Source: an uncultured cyanobacterium (lineage in GTDB: Bacteria > Cyanobacteriota > Cyanobacteriia > Cyanobacteriales > Cyanobacteriaceae). From it: a stretch of DNA of 64,000 nt. The notes beneath the pieces are model-generated. The model made no database searches and was not told the origin of the DNA. It was given only the letters and a program-made list of their open reading frames with translations. The number at the start of each line of letters is the position of its first letter. The stretch's first letter is position 1. The position numbers were made by a program, and so were the translations under genes. The stretch is taken from positions 96,001-160,000 of the forward strand of contig CAVQBA010000002.1 in NCBI GenBank assembly GCA_963710605.1, in the 5' to 3' direction. This document shows positions 40,475-60,447 of this stretch, in pieces.

Positions 40475-40876
40475 ACAGTAGAGCTATTATAAGGAATTAA
40501 GGTGTGGTAAGTATCTGTTTTTGTATTTTGAATAGCATTAAGTATTAATACGTTGATATCGGAAGGAAGTTTACGGATACCAGGGGCTATATGGTTCTTT
40601 AGTAAGTCGTGGGGATGAGCTTGTTTGTCTAATTTTTTGTTGGCAAAGGGAGTTTCATCGATAAACCAACCTAAACCGTTGGCGTTATGATCGATTTTAA
40701 TAATACCTGCGTTAGGTTTACCCTCGGAGTCAGAAACTTGTAATGGTGGCTTCTGCTAGTTGTCCTGTGGGTAAGTCTTTTATTTCATAAGTGATATCGA
40801 TATCTGTTTGAGGTAAGAGAGTTGACCAGATGTGGTTTACGCTGTTATTTAGTTGATGAATCGTTTGGAGATTAGA

Positions 40877-41656
40877 ATGATGGACAGAGAAGAATTTTTT
40901 AGAAGGTATGATGCTGGGGAAAGGAATTTTATGGGTTACAGTGGAAGTATTGGCTCGTGCCTCGGAAATCTGAATGGTATCAATCTCCAAAATGCCATTT
41001 TGTTGAATAATTCCTTGGACCAATCTTTTTTGATTAATGCCAACTTGAGTCATGTTAATTTTGAAGGCTCCGACTTGGTTGGATGTTTCTTCAACAATTC
41101 TAATTTCAGGAATGCTAATTTGAGGAATTGTGACTTGACTGGTGCTGACTTGACTGGTGCTGACTTGACTGGTGCTGACTTGACTGGTGCTGACTTGACT
41201 GGTGCCTTCTTGCTCGATACCAATCTTACAGGAGCTAACATTACCAATGTTAAGACAAGTGGAACTATCTTTCACGAAACTATCATGCCTGATGGAAGAA
41301 TCAGTCATAAGAGTTCTCATGTTTTGGACGGAAAGGAATTGCTTAAACGTTGTCGGAAAGGTGAAACCTATTTTTCTTCCTTTATTTTGTACAAAGCCAA
41401 TTTGAATCAGACTAGTTTGAGTTCTATTACTCTCCCTTGGAGATGTATTAGAGTCAATTTTAGAAGAGTGAGCTTTGTTAATATTGACATCATTGCTAAT
41501 AATTTTGTTTTGTGTGATTTCAGGAAAGCTAATTTTAGTAGAGCGAATCTTTGGAATGGTAATTTCGCTTGTTGTGATTTCAGAGAAATTATTGGAAGTG
41601 AACAAATCAGAGGGAGTGACAGCGATGCCTTTATTTTCATTGATTGTACTAAGTAA
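40877..41656 (+). CDS. Pentapeptide repeat protein with two EELL.RY..GER.F-type modules
   Basis: GGAG at 40867 before ATG 40877; MDREEFFRRYDAGERNF, (A)DLTG x5, TIMPDG and second module LDGKELLKRCRKGETYF. Confidence 0.85.
   Translation: MMDREEFFRRYDAGERNFMGYSGSIGSCLGNLNGINLQNAILLNNSLDQSFLINANLSHVNFEGSDLVGCFFNNSNFRNANLRNCDLTGADLTGADLTGADLTGADLTGAFLLDTNLTGANITNVKTSGTIFHETIMPDGRISHKSSHVLDGKELLKRCRKGETYFSSFILYKANLNQTSLSSITLPWRCIRVNFRRVSFVNIDIIANNFVLCDFRKANFSRANLWNGNFACCDFREIIGSEQIRGSDSDAFIFIDCTK
41131..41205 (+). repeat. Perfect 15-bp tandem repeat x5 (TGACTTGACTGGTGC)
   Basis: Direct reading; encodes DLTGA on + and QVSTS on -. Confidence 0.95.
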
Positions 41657-49915: not shown

Positions 49916-52393
49916 TTATTTAAAGCCGAATTTGATTTTTAAGTTATCATCAATTTCGGCTATTTCAGTAATATCTATTCCTAATTTTTCGGCATCTTTA
50001 ATTGCTTTTTTATCGGCAGTATAGGCTATTTTTTCAGTTCTATATTCTGTCGGTAATTCTTGAGGTTTAACTTTAAGTTTAATTTTGGGATATTTACGAA
50101 AACTGATATTTCTTTCTTTACCTTGAGATTTTTTATTTAGTAATCCTTGTTGATATAACTCAAGTAGTTTTTGATGTAATAATTCTTGTCCTGTTTTTAA
50201 TTGTTGTATTTGCTGTTGAAGCATTTCGTTAATTTTTTTCTGTTTAGCGATCGTACTTACTATTGCTAATTCGTATTGATCATTTATCCAAGCGAAACCA
50301 TCAATATCAACGTTTAGTTTAGTCATCAAATTAAAAACTTCGTCTTCATCTTCAGTATTAATTAATTCTTGCCAAATTTGAGCCGCTAACGGATGATAAT
50401 TTTGCGGTAAATCTTGATAATCTTCTTCAACTACTTTAGTTGAATGAGAGCTAATATTTTGACTGATATTTTCAATGGATGATTGATAATCTTCTTCCTG
50501 ATTAAAATTATCGGTAGTCAAATGAGACTTTATCCATTCTGTTTTCATTTGGGCTAAAGACTCATCATAAAGTTGTAATATCTCCACGGAAGAGTGCATC
50601 TGTCTTTGTTGATAAATTTGTTGTAGTTGGGTTAATAACAAATGACGATTTTCGAGATCGGTATCTAGTTTTGAATATTGTTTGAATTGAAGATAAAATC
50701 GATTTAAACGATCGTCAAAGATATTTTGGCTTGAATTTGAGGTATTAATAAAAATCAGTTTTACTTGTCTTAAATCGCTATTTACACGAAGATAACTAAT
50801 TATTTCGGTTGCAAAAACGATCGCAATTTGCTCAACAGAAAGAGAAATCCCGTCAGCTAAAAAGACAGGAAAAGCGATCGACTCATAAGCACTAGTATCG
50901 GCTAAGGTGAGACAACGATGTACAATCGTTTGAATTAATTTTAAGTCAGTGAGTTGAGGATGCGCATAGTCATAAATCACAGCATGAAAAATAGTATCTA
51001 CCAATAAATTTCCGGCATTAGTGGTGATGATTTGCCCTAGTTGCTTAACGTTGGTTTGCTTTAATTGTTGAGTAATAGTTTTCCCGCCTTTAGTAACTAT
51101 TTCAGTAGCGATGGCTTCACTTAAAGATAAATCTCGATCGAGATAATTTATTAATACCTCTGTATTGATATTATCGATCGTGTTATATTCTAAAACCAAT
51201 TCAGTTTGATTGATGGTTGTATCCCAAAGCAGGTTACTAAAATTAGTCGAAGTCTGGGAATAATTACTAGTATTTAATTCAGTCGGATTTAATTGTAAAC
51301 CCTGTAAATTTTGCCAAGTGAGGGGTAAGCTAGCGGGATTTTGGCAGATAATAGGCAACCACGTGGCACAAGGATAGTCTTTTTCTAAAGGTTGTAATTT
51401 TTCTCTGGCTTGTCTGACGGCTAAATATAAAGGTTGATTATTAGCAAAACTTTGTAAAAATTGACGAATAAAAACGTGGGCAACCGCATCGGGTATCATT
51501 TCACCCATGACGATAATTTGGGCTAGATGTAAATTAGCTAAATCCTCGGCTAAACCAATTCCTTCACAAGAGTTAAAAATAGCAAGTCTTAAACCTTTAG
51601 CAATGGCTTTTTTTAGTGCTTTATTTAAGTCTTCGATTGTGATAATATCACTGTTGTTAAGGTGGAGTTTTCCTTCTCTAGTCTCTTGATTTGTACCGCT
51701 ATGCCCTGCAAAAAAAAGAATATCCCATTCTTGCTCATAAAGATGATTAAATAATTCTTCGGAGGTAGGAGTTACTAATGTAGTGATTTGAGCCGTTTTG
51801 AGATTACTGATAGCGTCTAAATCCGGTTGCAAGTCGATGCCTTCACTATTACCAAAAACAGCTAAAATTTTGATTTGGCTATGGTTTGCCGGAGGTAAAT
51901 TAATATTAGTATATTCGACAGGAGCGATCGCTACCTCAGCTTGAGGATAACGATTAAGAAAAGCATCAAAAAATAAATGCCAAGGAAGAAAACGTAATTC
52001 AGAAATATCAGTTTGTACCAAAAGACGAATCATATCTTGTGGATTTAACTCAGTCGAAAGTTTTTCACGCACTGTAGCAAAAGATTCTTGAGGGGAATTA
52101 TACCAACTAGATAACGCTACTTTTAATTGCGAAGCCGATTGCTGACAAGTATGGGTAATGTGGGTAATTTGTCTTGGGGATGAACCAAGTCTTACTTTTT
52201 GGTGTAAACTACGATAACTATTTTGCCATTGCTGATAATGTTGAGTAATAGGTTGGCAAGGAGGAAGTTTCCCTTTAATTGTGGTAAAAGGATGGGTAAT
52301 TCGATCGGGGTTATCTTCACAAATTTGGACGGTAACCGCAAATCCGTTGGCAAAATTACCTGATTCGATTTTAAACAGAATTAACTTACCCAT
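49916..52393 (-). CDS. CHAT domain + degenerate macrodomain + Siphovirus Gp157-like fusion protein
   Basis: FFAGHS and IFNSCEG (CHAT dyad); ITTNAGNL...IFHAV and SIAFP (macro); ISFRK...LPTEY...ADKKAIKDA..G (Gp157-like); ATG at 52393 preferred. Confidence 0.75.
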   Translation of the reverse strand: MGKLILFKIESGNFANGFAVTVQICEDNPDRITHPFTTIKGKLPPCQPITQHYQQWQNSYRSLHQKVRLGSSPRQITHITHTCQQSASQLKVALSSWYNSPQESFATVREKLSTELNPQDMIRLLVQTDISELRFLPWHLFFDAFLNRYPQAEVAIAPVEYTNINLPPANHSQIKILAVFGNSEGIDLQPDLDAISNLKTAQITTLVTPTSEELFNHLYEQEWDILFFAGHSGTNQETREGKLHLNNSDIITIEDLNKALKKAIAKGLRLAIFNSCEGIGLAEDLANLHLAQIIVMGEMIPDAVAHVFIRQFLQSFANNQPLYLAVRQAREKLQPLEKDYPCATWLPIICQNPASLPLTWQNLQGLQLNPTELNTSNYSQTSTNFSNLLWDTTINQTELVLEYNTIDNINTEVLINYLDRDLSLSEAIATEIVTKGGKTITQQLKQTNVKQLGQIITTNAGNLLVDTIFHAVIYDYAHPQLTDLKLIQTIVHRCLTLADTSAYESIAFPVFLADGISLSVEQIAIVFATEIISYLRVNSDLRQVKLIFINTSNSSQNIFDDRLNRFYLQFKQYSKLDTDLENRHLLLTQLQQIYQQRQMHSSVEILQLYDESLAQMKTEWIKSHLTTDNFNQEEDYQSSIENISQNISSHSTKVVEEDYQDLPQNYHPLAAQIWQELINTEDEDEVFNLMTKLNVDIDGFAWINDQYELAIVSTIAKQKKINEMLQQQIQQLKTGQELLHQKLLELYQQGLLNKKSQGKERNISFRKYPKIKLKVKPQELPTEYRTEKIAYTADKKAIKDAEKLGIDITEIAEIDDNLKIKFGFK

Positions 52394-52660
52394 AAATAAT
52401 GAATAATAAATAACGTACAATGAACAATTAATAATGAACAATGAATAATTAATTTACTAATTACTCTTATCCTGTCTCAATCTTAATCTAAACGACTATA
52501 ACTAATAATATAGCTAGTTATTAGAACTTACGCATTGACCCTAAATGTAGAGTAGGTAGTACCAAACTTTCTCCTACAGATAGCGTTAATAAAAGCTATT
52601 TTAATATTATTGTTATTTTCTTAATTCTTTTTGTAAACGACGATTGTAATTATTACTTTA

Positions 52661-53218
52661 ATGAATATCAATCAAGACTATTACCTTATTGTTGATTTGG
52701 AAGCTACTTGTAGTAACGATAAGTCTATTTCTTCTAAGAAAATGGAAATTATTGAAATAGGGGCGGTGATGCTCAATTCAACCACTCTGGAAGTAGAAAG
52801 CGAATATCAAACTTTTGTTAAGCCAATATTGTATCCTCAATTAACGGATTTTTGTAAGTCTCTTACTTCTATTACTCAAGAAGACGTTGATAATGCCCCT
52901 TTATTTCCTGATGCACTTAAAGATTTTCAATCTTGGTTTTATCCTTTTGGCAGTTATCTTTTTTGCTCTTGGGGAGACTATGACAAAAATCAGTTTAAGC
53001 TTGATTGTAAGTTATATAATATTGGTTACCCTTTTGCTAGTGAGCATCTTAATCTTAAGAAAGAATATACGGTTGTGACTAATTCTGCCAAAAAATGGGG
53101 AATGGTACAAGTATTAGAGCAACTAGATTTAAAATTAGAAGGTACACATCATAGAGGGATTGATGATGCTCGCAATATTGCCCGTATTGTTAAAGCTATA
53201 CGATCGAAACCGGTATGA
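52661..53218 (+). CDS. DEDDh 3'-5' exonuclease (ERI-1/KapD-like)
   Basis: VDLEATC, EIIEIGAV, SWGDYD and HHRGIDDA. Confidence 0.9.
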   Translation: MNINQDYYLIVDLEATCSNDKSISSKKMEIIEIGAVMLNSTTLEVESEYQTFVKPILYPQLTDFCKSLTSITQEDVDNAPLFPDALKDFQSWFYPFGSYLFCSWGDYDKNQFKLDCKLYNIGYPFASEHLNLKKEYTVVTNSAKKWGMVQVLEQLDLKLEGTHHRGIDDARNIARIVKAIRSKPV

Positions 53219-53391
53219 TAAATGAAGAATACAAAAGAATGGAGAATTGATTTTGAGTTTTTTGATTCGCAATTGCTAATTCACCGACTTTGATAATACT
53301 AATCACAATTGATAAGTATTATGTACCAAGCTAACTTTTTCCTTAATTTTTTTTTAGATTAGAAAAAGTAACCTAATCTAAATCTGTCAAA

Positions 53392-54180
53392 ATGCAACAA
53401 AGCGGATTACAAACAAAAGACAAATTGCAAAATTCCCTACTAGAATTAGGAGACTCTCTTAGTATAGCTTGGTCAGAATTTAGTAAAAACATTAAAAATT
53501 TTTTGATTCTTGTTTTAGTGATTAATTTACCAATGGCATTAATCAACTTATACCTTTCTACTTCAATTCAAACTGATAGTGATGGGGCGTTTACCTTCGT
53601 CGGAAATAAAGGGTTATTTGTGATAGGCTGGTTGATATATGCTGTTTTGGCAACATTAACTTCATTAGCTAGTCATAAGATTATAGAACGATCGATATTA
53701 AACCAACACATAGAAGTAACTACAATACTTAAAAACTCTCTACCACAAATTTTAATCACTTTCGTTGTCGGTATAATTTTATTTTTTTTAATTGGATTAG
53801 GTTATATTTTTCTAATTATTCCTGGTATTTGGTTAATGGTTAGATATAGTTTTACCGCTCAAGCCATTGCTTTACGTAATTGTGGTTTAAATTCTTTAGG
53901 TTATAGTAGCTCGATTGTTAAAGGGCGATGGTGGAGTTTATTCTGGAGATATATATTGTTAGGTTTTTGTGCTTTGCTAATTTTCATTCCAGTATTGATT
54001 GTTATGGGCATTATTGGTGGTTTAGCTAGTTTAATCAATCTTGGTGTTGTTGCACAAATATTATCTGCTTTGATTAGTAGTTTAATTGGTTATTATTTTT
54101 TAGCTGTAAATACAGTTATTTTTCTTAATTTTGACTATACTCATAAAAACAATTTACCAGAATCTTCTTCCACTTCTTAA
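53392..54180 (+). CDS. Integral membrane protein
   Basis: Multiple TM helices; LIIPGIWL.VRYSF and S..IVKGRWW. Confidence 0.75.
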   Translation: MQQSGLQTKDKLQNSLLELGDSLSIAWSEFSKNIKNFLILVLVINLPMALINLYLSTSIQTDSDGAFTFVGNKGLFVIGWLIYAVLATLTSLASHKIIERSILNQHIEVTTILKNSLPQILITFVVGIILFFLIGLGYIFLIIPGIWLMVRYSFTAQAIALRNCGLNSLGYSSSIVKGRWWSLFWRYILLGFCALLIFIPVLIVMGIIGGLASLINLGVVAQILSALISSLIGYYFLAVNTVIFLNFDYTHKNNLPESSSTS

Positions 54181-54208
54181 ATTTTAGCGACACAATTATC
54201 CATGACTA

Positions 54209-56497
54209 ATGAGTAATTCTGATTCATCTGATAACGTAAATTTCGATCGTTTTTCCCAACAATTACAAACGATTACTAATCTGCCTGAATGCGATTATTT
54301 AGCCCAACTATTGTGGAATAGAGGAATTAAAAATACTCAACAATTAACATCTTTATTCGCTACTGGGCAACATCAACCTACTTCTTATTTAGAATTTGGT
54401 AACGAAATTGAGCAAGCTATTACTAGAATCAATCAAGCTCAAATTAACGCCGAAAAAGTTGCCGTTTGGGGAGATTGGCAAGTAGATAGTGTTATTTCGG
54501 CTTGTATTTTAAGTGAAGGTTTACAAGATTTTTTCCCTTTTAAAGATAACTTACAATTTTATTTTCTAGAGCGTGATTTATCTTGCTGGGGTTTAAACTG
54601 TGAAGGGATAGATAATTTAGCCAGACAAGATGTTAGTTTAATCATCACTGTTGGTATCGGGAGTCAGAATCTTCAGGAGATAGAATACGCTCGTAGTTTG
54701 GGTATTGATTTAATCATAATCGATCGTACTCCTATTATTAACCCAGATTTATCCGTCGTTGCTTTACTTAATCCCTACTTATTACCTGATACTCATCCTT
54801 TTTATCATGTTAGCGAAATAACGATCGTTTACAAATTACTTGAAGGTTTAGCCACAATCTCACCTAGTTTTTTCCCTCAACCTGTTAATAATCTTTTAGA
54901 TTTAGTCGCTTTGAGTTTACTGGCTACCGCCACCGAAAATTATTTATCCGCTGATGAGCGTTATTTAATTAATCAAGGGTTTATGCTCATAAAACAAGCA
55001 AAACGCCACAGTATTAATAGTTTAGCTCAACTTGGTTTTTCGATCGGCGATCGAGCTTTAGATCAAAATGACGGATTAGGACGTAAAATACAATTAATTA
55101 GTAGTATCTCTACAGACATCAACTTTATTGTTAATCTACTAACTAACTCCGAACAAAAAGAACAATCTAAACTAACTAATCAAGCCGAACAAATTTATCT
55201 TAACTGTTTAGATTTATACCAAAAAATGGTTGACGAAGCCAGAAAAATAATTAGTAATATAGATTTATCTAATACACAGATAATTGTTTTAACTAATACT
55301 CAATGGCAGATTGGTATCTTAGATTTGTTAGCTAAAATTATTTTCACTGAATATAACAAACCTATTTTATTTCTTTTACCTAAAAATAACTATACATTAC
55401 TATCTATTTATGGCTTAAATAGTATTTATTTATCCAACTTAGTTGAAGATTATAATCATTTAATAATAAACTTTGCCTTTATAAATAATCACCTGAAATG
55501 CGAATTATTAACAGAAAATATTGATTTATTTATTGAAATAATTACTCAAAAAGTAAACCATTTATCTAATAATATTAATAAGTTAAACAACTCTCATCAA
55601 ATAGACTTATTCGTTACGATAAATCAACTCGATCAAACTTTATATCAGCAATTAAAAATACTAGAGCCTTATAGTAAAAATAATCCTCCTTATCAACTAT
55701 TGATTCAAAACTGTTACTTAACTAATATTTTTCAACTAAACTTAAAAAGTACCCGTCAAAATAAACAAACTCGTTACAAAAAAACTTATTTTCAAGTATA
55801 TGATGATAGTGGTAAATATTCTTTTGATGGTGTCTGGCATACCCATTACGCCTTTGAACTTAACCAAAACGATCGTTTTGATTTGATAGGCGAAATTGCA
55901 TATAATACTTACAAAGAGTCTTATTATTTTCGAGTAATTAATTGTTATCTTCATCAGCAAAATAATTATTTTTTTAGTAACTCAAAAGAAACTATTCCTA
56001 TCTTAGATTATCGTTTTCAAACTCAGGAAAATATAGATAATATTTCTGCTTCTCAAATTATAAATAAATGCCCTCATCAATGGCAAGAAATTAATCAACC
56101 TTATCAGACTGCTAAAAAACAAAATCAACAACTTATTTTATCCTATTCACAAAATAAAACCGAAAATATTGAAAAAATATGGTTAGAATTTATCGGCTAT
56201 TTAAAATACTTATTATTAAATGATAAGTCAATTATGTTGTCAAAATTTAGTGAAAAGTTGAGTGTTAGTCAGCAATCTTTATTAAAGATATTATCTCTTC
56301 TTTCTTTATTATCAATTAATTATAGTATTCAAAAAAACAAACTAAAATTAAAACAACAAAAAGCTCATTTTTCAGCAGAAAATTATCATCTTGCTCATCA
56401 AAAATTTATTGAAATTATTAAGCAAGAAAACTTAGCAAAAAAATACTTTCATCAAATTCCGATCAAAATAATAGTTGATAATATTAATAACGATTAA
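54209..56497 (+). CDS. RecJ-like protein with degenerate catalytic motifs
   Basis: AQLLWNRG, WGDWQVD, LDLVAL and LEPYS..NP follow the RecJ layout; DHH replaced by DRT. Confidence 0.75.
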   Translation: MSNSDSSDNVNFDRFSQQLQTITNLPECDYLAQLLWNRGIKNTQQLTSLFATGQHQPTSYLEFGNEIEQAITRINQAQINAEKVAVWGDWQVDSVISACILSEGLQDFFPFKDNLQFYFLERDLSCWGLNCEGIDNLARQDVSLIITVGIGSQNLQEIEYARSLGIDLIIIDRTPIINPDLSVVALLNPYLLPDTHPFYHVSEITIVYKLLEGLATISPSFFPQPVNNLLDLVALSLLATATENYLSADERYLINQGFMLIKQAKRHSINSLAQLGFSIGDRALDQNDGLGRKIQLISSISTDINFIVNLLTNSEQKEQSKLTNQAEQIYLNCLDLYQKMVDEARKIISNIDLSNTQIIVLTNTQWQIGILDLLAKIIFTEYNKPILFLLPKNNYTLLSIYGLNSIYLSNLVEDYNHLIINFAFINNHLKCELLTENIDLFIEIITQKVNHLSNNINKLNNSHQIDLFVTINQLDQTLYQQLKILEPYSKNNPPYQLLIQNCYLTNIFQLNLKSTRQNKQTRYKKTYFQVYDDSGKYSFDGVWHTHYAFELNQNDRFDLIGEIAYNTYKESYYFRVINCYLHQQNNYFFSNSKETIPILDYRFQTQENIDNISASQIINKCPHQWQEINQPYQTAKKQNQQLILSYSQNKTENIEKIWLEFIGYLKYLLLNDKSIMLSKFSEKLSVSQQSLLKILSLLSLLSINYSIQKNKLKLKQQKAHFSAENYHLAHQKFIEIIKQENLAKKYFHQIPIKIIVDNINND

Positions 56498-58623: not shown

Positions 58624-60447
58624 ATGGATAATAGCTTTGAGCAAATATCTCTACTAATGCGTCAAAGTACCCTTGGCAAATTACTTCCAAATAATCTTTA
58701 CGTTCATATTTCAGCTTTGGAATATTTAGATTCATCAATTCAAGAATATGAAAAAAAATCGAGAAATATTCTTAACAATCATCTAGATTTTACTTTAATT
58801 AAATTTAATTTTACTAAAGCTAAAATATCATATCTTACTTATCCTGATTTTGATGATTCTCCTCATCCTATTTTAACTAAAAGTACGATCGTTGATTTAG
58901 AAACCCAAACTACTAAAACGATCGATTATAGTAAATCACAAAACCCACCAATTCTTCATCGTAAAGAAACTTTTGTAACAAATGACTATTCTCACTACGA
59001 AAAATTTGCTCATTTAACAACTGTTGAAGAAAAATTAGGTTTACTAGATAATCCTCGTTATATCGGTACTCTCAAACAATGGCAAAAACTAATTGATGAT
59101 CATTCTCTTTATTTTCTTGATCATTATTTAGTTTGTAATTTGGCAGATAATCCACAAGAATTTGTCAACATTGAACGTCATCGTGCCGCTATGTTTAGAA
59201 ATAGACTTTCTCGCCCTGTTAAATTAGTGCTAGAAGCAGGTTTATTTGAGCCACAAATGAGCTTTTTTGATTATGGCTGTGGTCGTGGCTTAGATGTAGA
59301 AATTGTTGCTCTTAAAGGTCATAAAAGTAGTGGTTGGGACCCTTATTATGCTCCTTATAATGTATTAGAAAAAGCAGATCTGGTTAATTTAGGTTATATT
59401 ATTAATGTTATTGAAAATGTTGCTCAAAGAAGAGAAGCTTTGATACAAGCATGGTCATTAACTCTTGACATTTTGATTGTTTCAGCTCAAGTTTTAATCG
59501 ACGATCGACAAAGAGGTTATTTAGCTTACGCTGATGGTATTATCACCGAAAGAAATACATTTCAAAAATACTATCAACAAGAAGAATTAAAAATTTATAT
59601 CGAACAAGTTTTAAACTCTGAAGCGATTCCCATTGCCTTAGGAGTTTTTTTAGTCTTTAGAAACCCTGATAAAGCGAATAATTTTCGAGTATCACGTTTT
59701 CATTCTAATTTACAATCACCTCGCATTTTAAAACCAGTTAAAAAGTTTGCTGATTATGAGCAAATACTAACTCCTTTAATGGATTTTTATAGTAAAAGGG
59801 GTAGATTACCTCTTAAAGGAGAATTGGCTGTCGAAGACGAAATTAAAGCCGAATTTAGAGGTTTTAAACAAGCATTCAAAACTATATTACAAGTAACCGA
59901 AGAAGCACAATGGGAAGAAATTGCCGATTGTCGTCGTCAGGATATATTATTATATTTAGCACTCGGTCGTTTTGAGCAAAGACCAAGTTTTAGGCAACTA
60001 CCTTCATTAGTGAAAAATGATATCAAAAGATTATTTGGTAGTTATCAAGCCGCTTGTTTTCTAGCTGATGAAATGTTAATTTCGATTGGAAATCTAGACA
60101 TTATTCGGCAAATTTGTCAAGAGTTAAAAATAGGTAAAGCTTTTGAAAAAAGTTTTTTAATTCATATTGAGATGTTAAATTCTTTACCAACTTTGTTACG
60201 TTTATATGAAGGTTGTGCTAGTCGTACGATCGGTAGAATGGAGTCAGCAAATTTAGTTCGTTTCCATTTTACTGCCCCGAAAATTAGTTATCTTTGTGTA
60301 CCCGATTTTGAAACAGAAAAAAAACCCAAAGTTGATTCTATCATGACGATCGCTTTACAAGACTTAAGAGTACAATATCGAGATTTTGCGACAGAAGACA
60401 ATGCACCAATTATTAACGATAAAAAAGCCTTAAAAGTTAAAAGTTAA
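58624..60447 (+). CDS. DNA phosphorothioation-associated putative methyltransferase family protein
   Basis: YPDFD..PHP, NPPILHRKETF, IERHRAA, FFDYGCGRG.D, GWDPY, VNLGYIINVIE and TFQKYYQQ.EL. Confidence 0.8.
   Translation: MDNSFEQISLLMRQSTLGKLLPNNLYVHISALEYLDSSIQEYEKKSRNILNNHLDFTLIKFNFTKAKISYLTYPDFDDSPHPILTKSTIVDLETQTTKTIDYSKSQNPPILHRKETFVTNDYSHYEKFAHLTTVEEKLGLLDNPRYIGTLKQWQKLIDDHSLYFLDHYLVCNLADNPQEFVNIERHRAAMFRNRLSRPVKLVLEAGLFEPQMSFFDYGCGRGLDVEIVALKGHKSSGWDPYYAPYNVLEKADLVNLGYIINVIENVAQRREALIQAWSLTLDILIVSAQVLIDDRQRGYLAYADGIITERNTFQKYYQQEELKIYIEQVLNSEAIPIALGVFLVFRNPDKANNFRVSRFHSNLQSPRILKPVKKFADYEQILTPLMDFYSKRGRLPLKGELAVEDEIKAEFRGFKQAFKTILQVTEEAQWEEIADCRRQDILLYLALGRFEQRPSFRQLPSLVKNDIKRLFGSYQAACFLADEMLISIGNLDIIRQICQELKIGKAFEKSFLIHIEMLNSLPTLLRLYEGCASRTIGRMESANLVRFHFTAPKISYLCVPDFETEKKPKVDSIMTIALQDLRVQYRDFATEDNAPIINDKKALKVKS

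Follow-up and report, generated by a model that had tools for sequence, protein, structure and literature searches.

A CHAT protease with a macro domain and a Gp157-family tail in cyanobacteria: a candidate sensor protease of the EACC2 + caspase class

What does a cyanobacterial cell do with a protein that joins, in a single chain, a predicted protease, a macro domain and a relative of the Gp157 proteins of siphoviruses? The question is raised by a gene of an uncultured cyanobacterium of the family Cyanobacteriaceae (GenBank assembly GCA_963710605.1, contig CAVQBA010000002.1, positions 96,001 to 160,000), located in a stretch of 64,000 nucleotides that is referred to here as the window, and a preliminary description of the letters of this DNA had proposed it as an anti-phage sensor and effector of an unfamiliar architecture. 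The gene is on the minus strand, where an open frame covers 49916..52441 if it is begun at a TTG codon (841 amino acids). The start taken here is the ATG at 52393, which yields a coding sequence of 825 amino acids plus the stop and a protein that opens MGKLILF. Since the residues M1-G2-K3-L4 are unchanged in 32 of 32 aligned orthologues, the span originally given to the gene, 49916..52393, is right. The residue numbers of that description follow the 841-residue frame and become those of the 825-residue protein, used throughout this text, when 16 is subtracted (H247 is His231 and C292 is Cys276). A Pfam scan of the whole protein places CHAT at residues 112-345, Macro at 418-514 and Sipho_Gp157 at 714-809, the last one below its threshold, and the full-length AlphaFold2 model has a mean predicted local distance difference test score (pLDDT) of 80.5 and a predicted template-modelling score (pTM) of 0.48. 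The best explanation of the sequence and the model together is that the protein would be a soluble, stand-alone signalling protease of the cyanobacterial class in which an EACC2 + caspase/CHAT module is the constant part and the C-terminus the variable one, and its distinctive part is the Gp157-family tail.

The fusion is conserved in a group of cyanobacteria. A search against 5.8 billion clustered proteins identified 35 relatives aligned along the whole query (100% coverage), with 39-74% identity and lengths of 792-833 amino acids, and those with a name belong to Geminocystis and Cyanobacterium aponinum. The alignment on which most of the following comparisons are based (A1) contains the window protein and 31 of these 35 relatives, with P0012, P0016, P0018 and P0020 omitted as near-duplicates. 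Among 20 genomes of the family, a full-length match without internal stops is present in 11 (the window genome, 7/7 of one genus and 3/3 of another), and the other nine, which are 63-100% complete and six of them at least 96%, have no full-length match; across the order, an evenly drawn sample of 201 genomes contained nine with a match to the macro domain plus the tail, two of them from other families. Because the fusion is conserved across relatives it is not a misassembly, and the concern, voiced at the outset, that it might be a one-off or an assembly error is ruled out. The protein diverges faster than a housekeeping control, with 58-64% identity where CdsA retains 80-86%.

The first part of the chain accounts for the protease. 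The CHAT family (PF12770) is matched at 56.3 bits against a cut-off of 24 (E = 4.5e-15, residues 112-345) and is found by Pfam in the 32 orthologues, all of which also keep the two catalytic residues, in the window protein His231 in FFAGHSG (codon at 51701-51703, minus strand) and Cys276 in IFNSCEG (codon at 51566-51568, minus strand). The protein is therefore predicted to be a CHAT protease with a retained caspase-like dyad, as had been described, and residues 116-360 (51314..52048, minus strand) are taken as its active half. A wide structural search (VIA) with the full-length AlphaFold2 model against 48,161 solved chains aligned residues 1-366 with separase (5fc2_B, Z 23.9, root-mean-square deviation (rmsd) 3.5 Å, 316 residues aligned; 9hvy_A, Z 22.8) and with Csx29, the TPR-CHAT protein of Craspase (7zoq_A, Z 22.2; 7y9x_B, Z 22.0), and it placed the active half (171-361) closest to the activated SAVED-CHAT filament (8tl0_A, Z 22.6, rmsd 1.9 Å, 181 aligned, 17% identity). 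Gingipains, legumain, metacaspase and caspases rank lower (Z 13-19, with caspases, legumain and metacaspase at 13-15), and the CHAT half is also matched by the transmembrane anti-sigma factor DdvA (8rot_B, Z 16.6, 265 aligned). In the model, then, the fold of residues 1-360 resembles that of separase, Csx29 and SAVED-CHAT. This fold was found by the VIA search only: in Foldseek against the PDB with the full-length model, macro domains filled the matches listed, and the A1 profile compared with PDB sequences found neither a CHAT nor a Gp157 chain at E ≤ 1.

The N-terminal residues 1-115 (52049..52393, minus strand) form, according to the secondary structure of the AlphaFold2 model, an alpha+beta region of EACC2 type with three strands followed by three helices. 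No Pfam family is matched by this region, and a Protein Atlas search with it returned just unnamed clusters at 0.90-0.91, which are uninformative. In the structural alignments described above (model residues 1-366), the pseudo-protease parts of separase and Csx29 are the counterparts on which it is aligned, jointly with the CHAT half, and it would correspond to the pseudo-protease half of a CHAT/separase-type protease. Over its helices there are also weak Pfam 'Death' matches (residues 58-107, 52073-52222; E = 0.11 in the window protein, and 6/32 orthologues with a best value of 0.0049, all of them sub-threshold), which are unproven and may be due to chance.

To what kind of system does such a protease belong? 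Hundreds of cyanobacterial proteins have an N-terminal part with 40-48% identity to residues 1-365, and their C-termini carry CHASE2, pentapeptide repeats, NACHT/STAND, WD40 or adenylate-cyclase domains. A class with this organization was described computationally by Kaur, Burroughs, Iyer and Aravind (eLife 2021, PMC8195603), whose text defines a constant N-terminal module, formed by a 'novel α+β domain' named EACC2 and a caspase domain that follows it, and a highly variable C-terminus (for example CHASE2, PDZ, kinase or STAND); the versions that have no TRADD-N gene are said there to include 'ADP-ribose-processing macro domains' among their C-terminal variants. The same authors propose that a stimulus received by the variable part activates the autopeptidase, that a TRADD-N or ECF sigma step follows, and that systems with a homologous N-terminal module act in biological conflict. 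In both its homology to CHAT-CHASE2 proteins and the published description, the sequence of residues 1-365 fits the EACC2 + caspase constant module. The claim that the architecture is unlike any described system is consequently not sustained, as the class, macro C-termini included, appears in PMC8195603; only the tail was not found there, the word 'Gp157' being absent from the main text and eight supplement files in a word search of text, to which the figures (Figure 3H included) do not belong. The protein is thus only partly new, and the new element is its Gp157-family tail. A literature search found no paper linking a CHAT domain with a macro domain in cyanobacteria, and none linking a CHAT domain with CHASE2.

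The tail corresponds to residues 667-825 (49919..50395, minus strand). In the whole window protein, PF05565 stays below its threshold (16.4 bits against a cut-off of 28.6, E = 0.0092, residues 714-809); the same family is matched by 19/32 orthologues at E ≤ 0.1, with a best value of 7.4e-8, and phrog_253, the Gp157 family of PHROGs, by 12/32, with a best value of 5.1e-11. The last 140 residues of the window protein, when compared alone with phrog_253, give E = 1.6e-6. A search of 1.84 billion representative proteins with a profile built from 13 tails (A3) retrieved 83 representatives at E ≤ 0.001, of which one is a CHAT fusion and most others have 160-220 amino acids; 25 of the 83 were scanned, and 20 of these are Sipho_Gp157 proteins over the cut-off, including all 17 free proteins of 161-220 amino acids. 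In addition, hhalign relates the tail to a profile of 66 free Gp157 proteins with 99.9%, and to a free cyanobacterial Gp157 protein with 98.8%, over about 137 aligned residues with 31% identity. On the strength of these searches (profile, reciprocal and transitive), whose matches are well beyond chance, residues 667-825 can be assigned to the Sipho_Gp157 family as a divergent member, and the proposed kinship is upheld in spite of the sub-threshold Pfam score of the window protein alone. Within the 83 representatives (25 scanned), an identified enzyme fusion is carried by the CHAT-macro-Gp157 family alone.

The AlphaFold2 model of residues 560-825 (pLDDT 79.6) consists of long helices and then a small β domain. 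Its top match in BFVD is a protein named Siphovirus Gp157, and the match is weak (E = 2.2e-3, TMt 0.42); Foldseek against the PDB with this 266-residue model gave no match at E ≤ 0.001, and the VIA wide search gave generic helical hairpins over residues 1-90 of the model only, the β domain not being effectively covered. The β domain is basic, with a net charge of +7 and 19 Lys/Arg per 75 residues, and its identity, measured against the five most distant orthologues, is 0.57, compared with 0.60 for CHAT and 0.36 for the macro domain, which brings the tail close to the protease in conservation. Pairing is predicted for two copies of residues 680-825, with an ipSAE score of 0.62 in 3/3 runs against 0.00 for the best of three controls; the runs have at least 97% of their contacts in common, and the pLDDT of the partner is 84. 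In the calibration of the dimer score, the mark was reached by 20/30 proteins solved as one-chain pairs and by 1/23 single chains (rough counts, own alignment used). The tail is consequently predicted to form an intertwined homodimer, a prediction that supports pairing and does not show it. The first description had imagined the tail as a decoy or an oligomerisation sensor, and it is the oligomerisation part of this idea that gains support from the predicted homodimer; the decoy part is considered below at a lower strength.

Free relatives of the tail belong to mobile elements. A Gp157 homologue of 172 amino acids is encoded in a 32-kb contig (L017) of a related genome, with 40.1 bits for PF05565, and tail-only free open reading frames (ORFs) are present in 22/201 genomes of the order sample. 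A tblastn search with the tail matched 22 plasmid records, all of them cyanobacterial and 16 typed as conjugative, and 13 of these matches are annotated as 'siphovirus Gp157 family protein'. By sequence comparison, the nearest free relatives of the tail thus sit on cyanobacterial, mostly conjugative, plasmids. The family is found in viruses too, as a cyanosiphovirus with a gp157 gene has been reported (PMC6157547), and sipho_gp157 genes have been described at the position of Mu Gam, upstream of erf-ssb modules (PMC8093625). According to PMC6356513, the label 'phage resistance' in the Pfam note on Gp157 traces to a 302-bp non-coding origin element. A separate observation is that the contig of the free homologue contains, at L017:632-10500 (G011:C6), a mobile-element module composed of SSB, an Erf-like ORF (weak, E = 0.0013), Gp157, an exonuclease-like ORF, a helicase and a primase-polymerase.

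As the tail is distinctive, being an accessory module of mobile-element recombination that is conserved, basic and probably dimeric, the explanation favoured here, at somewhat less than an even chance, is that the protein works as a sensor protease dimerised through its tail, and that its cue is either some feature of mobile or broken DNA or a mobile-element protein. A constant protease output combined with a variable input fits the logic that PMC8195603 proposes for the class. In such a protein, the dimer would be held together by the tail, and the variable part would act as the input: the tail would sense incoming or replicating mobile DNA, perhaps its ends or the intermediates of its recombination, for which the Gam-like position of Gp157 genes offers an analogy, or else the input might be the Gp157 of the element itself or its annealing-protein partner, by means of subunit exchange, and the macro domain could be a co-sensor or a relay. 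Recognition would rearrange or cluster the two CHAT domains and turn proteolysis on, either as self-processing or as cleavage of cellular targets, and the outcome might be growth arrest or a transcriptional response. There are precedents for switchable proteases of this type, namely SAVED-CHAT, in which the CHAT protease is gated by ligand and assembly (PDB 8tl0; 10.1101/2023.06.23.546230), and type IV Thoeris, in which a caspase-like protease is reported to be activated by N7-cyclic ADP-ribose (N7-cADPR; 10.1101/2024.10.24.620036).

A bolder form of this proposal, which appears rather unlikely at present, turns the tail into an integrated decoy. The tail would be a host-captured copy of the Gp157 that is carried, within recombination or replication modules, by cyanobacterial conjugative plasmids and some phages. 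As the modules would pair in intertwined dimers, the free Gp157 of the invader, or the annealing protein or DNA end with which this Gp157 ordinarily engages, would swap into the host dimer or bind to it, freeing the CHAT domains, so that one polypeptide would constitute a mobile-element receptor with caspase-like proteolysis. In plants, NLR integrated decoys are immune receptors that bear a copy of a protein used or targeted by the invader. The likeness of the window protein to these plant domains is an analogy only.

A number of results weigh against a tail-dimerised sensor of mobile DNA. A scan of the protein with PADLOC-DB 2.0 gives 0 families at E ≤ 1, and the gene has housekeeping neighbours that are different in the window and in six other genomes (seven contexts). 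The gene is also fixed in two genera (7/7 and 3/3), unlike patchy accessory defence genes, and the degenerate loops of the macro domain make a nucleotide input doubtful. Neither the tail nor the free cyanobacterial Gp157 protein has a tblastn match at E ≤ 0.01 in 50,697 phage records, a null result that does not exclude diverged phage homologues, since these exist in PHROGs and BFVD. The profile of the window tail scores poorly against Gam (PF07352; P = 0.42 and 0.11), and a wider Gp157 profile against a 19-sequence Gam profile reaches 62% probability and P = 7.5e-5 over 49 columns only, with P = 0.086 in the reversed control; Mu Gam belongs to phrog_491 and not to phrog_253, that is, to a different family under the same label, and these weak profile scores and separate PHROGs do not establish a direct kinship between the tail and Mu Gam. 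No TRADD-N, ECF sigma or DUF1822 gene, the partners characteristic of the class, was found at the window locus or beside the six orthologues examined; the single DUF1822 gene of the window genome is on another contig (C4), directly upstream of a 609-residue EACC2/CHAT paralogue. Finally, no public sequencing runs are listed, RNA runs included, and no expression data were found.

These results also affect two of the earlier statements. Nothing specific was found for an anti-phage role: besides the PADLOC scan and the varied housekeeping neighbours, TIR_2 (PF13676, the sole TIR model used) has 0 places in the window genome, which is 85% complete, and occurs in 1/10 of the other orthologue-bearing genomes. 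The label 'phage-derived' for the Gp157 module needs nuance, with the nearest free relatives in 22 cyanobacterial plasmid records and 0 of the 50,697 phage records.

Having considered the missing partners, it is appropriate to ask whether they could act from elsewhere. The protein might be an orphan input of the EACC2 / DUF1822 / ECF-type network, acting in trans by way of the DUF1822 protein and a regulator beside the paralogue, with a transcriptional response and not cell death as its result. According to the TRADD-N or ECF sigma step that PMC8195603 places after autopeptidase activation, such an output would be expected, the DUF1822 gene does adjoin a paralogue in the same genome, and the CHAT half resembles the anti-sigma factor DdvA in the match given above. 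On the other hand, no sigma factor is recognised at the paralogue locus, where the upstream ORF of 486 amino acids has no Pfam match at E ≤ 0.001, and there is no evidence of cross-talk, all of which leaves this explanation quite improbable. PMC8195603 assigns a neighbouring TRADD-N gene, or ECF sigma plus DUF1822, to the 'majority' of the class and not to every member. The three genes in question (L037:4156-9099, G000:C4, in the genome of the window itself), namely the 486-residue ORF, the DUF1822 protein (197 bits) and the 609-residue paralogue with the same N-module and CHAT, are the canonical form of this class of system.

The role of the macro domain deserves separate attention. Residues 391-555 (50729..51223, minus strand) contain the Pfam match to Macro (PF01661; 37.9 bits against a cut-off of 22, E = 1.9e-9, residues 418-514), which Pfam finds in 32/32 orthologues; the A1 profile matches the solved PARP14 macro domains with E = 9.4e-24, as well as TTHA0132 and macroH2A, and the modelled region superposes on macroH2A1.1, macroH2A1.2 and PARP14 macro2 with a Foldseek TMt of about 0.8 and a VIA Z of about 22 (22.2). 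NCBIfam adds only weak macro equivalogs, far under their cut-offs. The region is therefore modelled as a macro domain of the binding-type class (macroH2A / PARP14 macro2), with degenerate phosphate-binding loops. The motifs TNAGNL, IFHAV and SIAFP are kept and NAAN, GGG and GIFG are not found in the window protein, exactly as first noticed and now borne out by Pfam, fold and the alignment of 32 sequences. It is well known that the glycine-rich loops of macro domains bind the phosphates of ADP-ribose. The window protein has NYLDRDLSLSEAI at loop 1 and FPVFLADGISL at loop 2 in place of the canonical loops; across the 32 orthologues, residues 510-516 of loop 2 are variable and poor in glycine, and loop 1 lacks the canonical glycines in the clade of the window protein. 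Position 412 is acidic in 32/32 (E in 25, D in 7), and D419 is present in 32/32. The domain is the least conserved globular part of the protein, with the 0.36 identity to the five most distant orthologues already given. Because of the degenerate loops and the low conservation, the binding of an ADP-ribose-type ligand in this clade is doubtful as far as its sequences indicate.

A more canonical macro domain is present in the five most distant orthologues (Pfam E = 3.5e-21), with a TG loop still in place in a distant orthologue, and in a 639-residue CHAT-macro paralogue (E = 1e-21). This paralogue (L018:5587-7506 in G009, and G014:C54:17563-19419) consists of CHAT, the canonical macro domain and the hairpin, without the Gp157 tail, and may represent the precursor architecture of the fusion.

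These properties bear on another explanation, in which the macro domain gates the protease by sensing an ADP-ribose-derived signal, and the Gp157 tail is only a dimerisation scaffold. Its fold is of the binding type, the acidic position 412 and D419 are maintained, the distant orthologues and the paralogue have stronger matches, and the tail is predicted to dimerise; moreover, the macro domain of type II Thoeris is reported to perceive histidine-ADP-ribose (His-ADPR) and the type IV protease to be triggered by N7-cADPR (10.1101/2024.10.24.620036). Nevertheless, the state of both loops and the low conservation of the domain do not favour a ligand-based gate, TIR_2 is scarce in these genomes, no CRISPR, cyclase, TIR or other signal-making enzyme gene lies beside the window gene, and a conserved basic β domain would be needless in a mere scaffold. 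Gating by the macro domain is, on balance, unlikely. The degenerate macro loops, together with the lack of a partner or context, could also be read as signs of a decaying or functionless fusion, but the frame is intact, without internal stops, in all 11 genomes with a full-length match, the catalytic dyad does not vary and the tail shows strong conservation among orthologues that are 39-74% identical, so that this possibility is highly improbable.

The genes that surround the protease gene in the window encode an acyltransferase, an S13 peptidase, a DUF3110 protein, a YdcZ exporter, a membrane ORF, a DEDDh exonuclease, a RecJ-like protein, PilZ, CdsA and a BFN nuclease. Elsewhere, the neighbours of the orthologues include psaB, crcB and squalene-hopene cyclase; a CCA-adding enzyme and a Na/H exchanger; ribBA and a DUF697 GTPase; and HtpG and a penicillin-binding protein (PBP). 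When four related genomes were compared, just the convergent membrane ORF recurred beside an orthologue, and it did so once. A conserved operon partner was considered and rejected, as no neighbour is kept across the contexts. The sole defence-type neighbour in the seven contexts is a BrxL-like Lon protease gene (L038:12999-14450, G062), situated 2.3 kb from an orthologue and near aminotransferases.

Divergent from the CHAT gene, at 52661-56497 (plus strand), the window contains the DEDDh (RNase_T) exonuclease, the membrane ORF and the RecJ-like protein (DHH + RecJ_OB), whose C-terminal half is long and AT-rich. This arrangement is one of the points in favour of a protease of DNA damage or stress that is not immune, in which a domesticated Gp157 would bind DNA ends or repair proteins of the host, the substrate of the protease would be a regulator of repair or of the cell cycle, and inheritance would be vertical. 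The gene is fixed and single-copy in two genera, its contexts are housekeeping ones, every module is under constraint, and the best fold match is separase, a cell-cycle protease. However, the DEDDh exonuclease / RecJ arrangement recurs beside the orthologues of none of four relatives (0/4). The distribution is patchy for a core regulator, given that nine of the 20 family genomes (six at least 96% complete) have no full-length match and that, outside the family, only two of the 201 genomes have one of macro plus tail. The evolution is faster than that of CdsA, and the homologous N-module is otherwise tied to predicted conflict systems (PMC8195603). Overall, such a role in DNA damage or stress seems rather unlikely.

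How does the favoured sensor protease compare with systems that are already known? With the EACC2 + caspase proteins (PMC8195603) it shares the order of an N-terminal alpha+beta region, caspase/CHAT and a variable C-terminus, macro being among the fusions listed there; its locus differs in having no TRADD-N, ECF sigma or DUF1822 gene, and its C-terminus in ending in a Gp157 module. SAVED-CHAT of type III-B CRISPR-Cas (8tl0) is likewise a sensor fused to a CHAT protease, and its active half superposes best of all matches, whereas in the window protein the sensor is macro + Gp157, the protease comes first, in reversed order, and there is no CRISPR or cyclase neighbour. Craspase TPR-CHAT / Csx29 and separase align with all of residues 1-360, pseudo-protease half included, with an identity of just 10-14%; the window protein has neither TPR repeats nor a Cas7-11 partner. 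The type II (macro effector) and type IV (TIR + caspase-like protease) Thoeris systems also combine a protease or a macro domain with ADP-ribose-derived signalling (10.1101/2024.10.24.620036), but the window gene has no TIR neighbour, no PF13676 in its genome, degenerate macro loops and no PADLOC match. The free Sipho_Gp157 proteins (PF05565, phrog_253) appear to have the same layout of helices and small β domain as the window tail; they are proteins of 160-220 amino acids in recombination or replication modules, and the window tail is fused to an enzyme.

The interest of the protein lies in the fact that CHAT and other caspase-like proteases have recently been shown, in Craspase, SAVED-CHAT and type IV Thoeris, to serve bacterial immunity as executioners that can be switched on. 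Among the many cyanobacterial CHAT proteins, it is a compact, soluble, single-gene case, with an input region of two recognisable parts, one of them taken from the recombination-replication toolkit of plasmids and phages. If the tail were the sensor, this would be a bacterial integrated-decoy receptor and the first assigned binding partner for the Gp157 family; if the role in DNA damage were the true one, a separase-like protease would be linked to DNA repair in cyanobacteria. Either outcome is testable by ordinary genetics in model cyanobacteria.

The globular parts are separated by segments of different character. Residues 361-390 (51224..51313, minus strand) are a linker of low confidence and poor conservation, with a pLDDT below 50 at 366-386 and a mean identity to the window protein of 0.40. 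Between the macro domain and the tail, residues 556-627 (50513..50728, minus strand) form a conserved helical hairpin (AlphaFold2 helices 561-596 and 600-625) that is common to the 639-residue CHAT-macro paralogue, the match to which extends to query residue 623. It is followed by an acidic linker, residues 628-666 (50396..50512, minus strand), which is predicted to be disordered (pLDDT below 50 at 628-663), with an identity of 0.31 and a net charge of -8.

Two further observations concern other parts of the window. Between cdsA and the BFN-nuclease gene, an ORF of 607 amino acids at 58624-60447 (plus strand) matches no Pfam family at E ≤ 0.01. At 40730-41656, long ORFs overlap on both strands, with GADLT pentapeptide-type repeats on the plus strand and STSQV repeats on the minus strand, and it is likely that only one of them is real.

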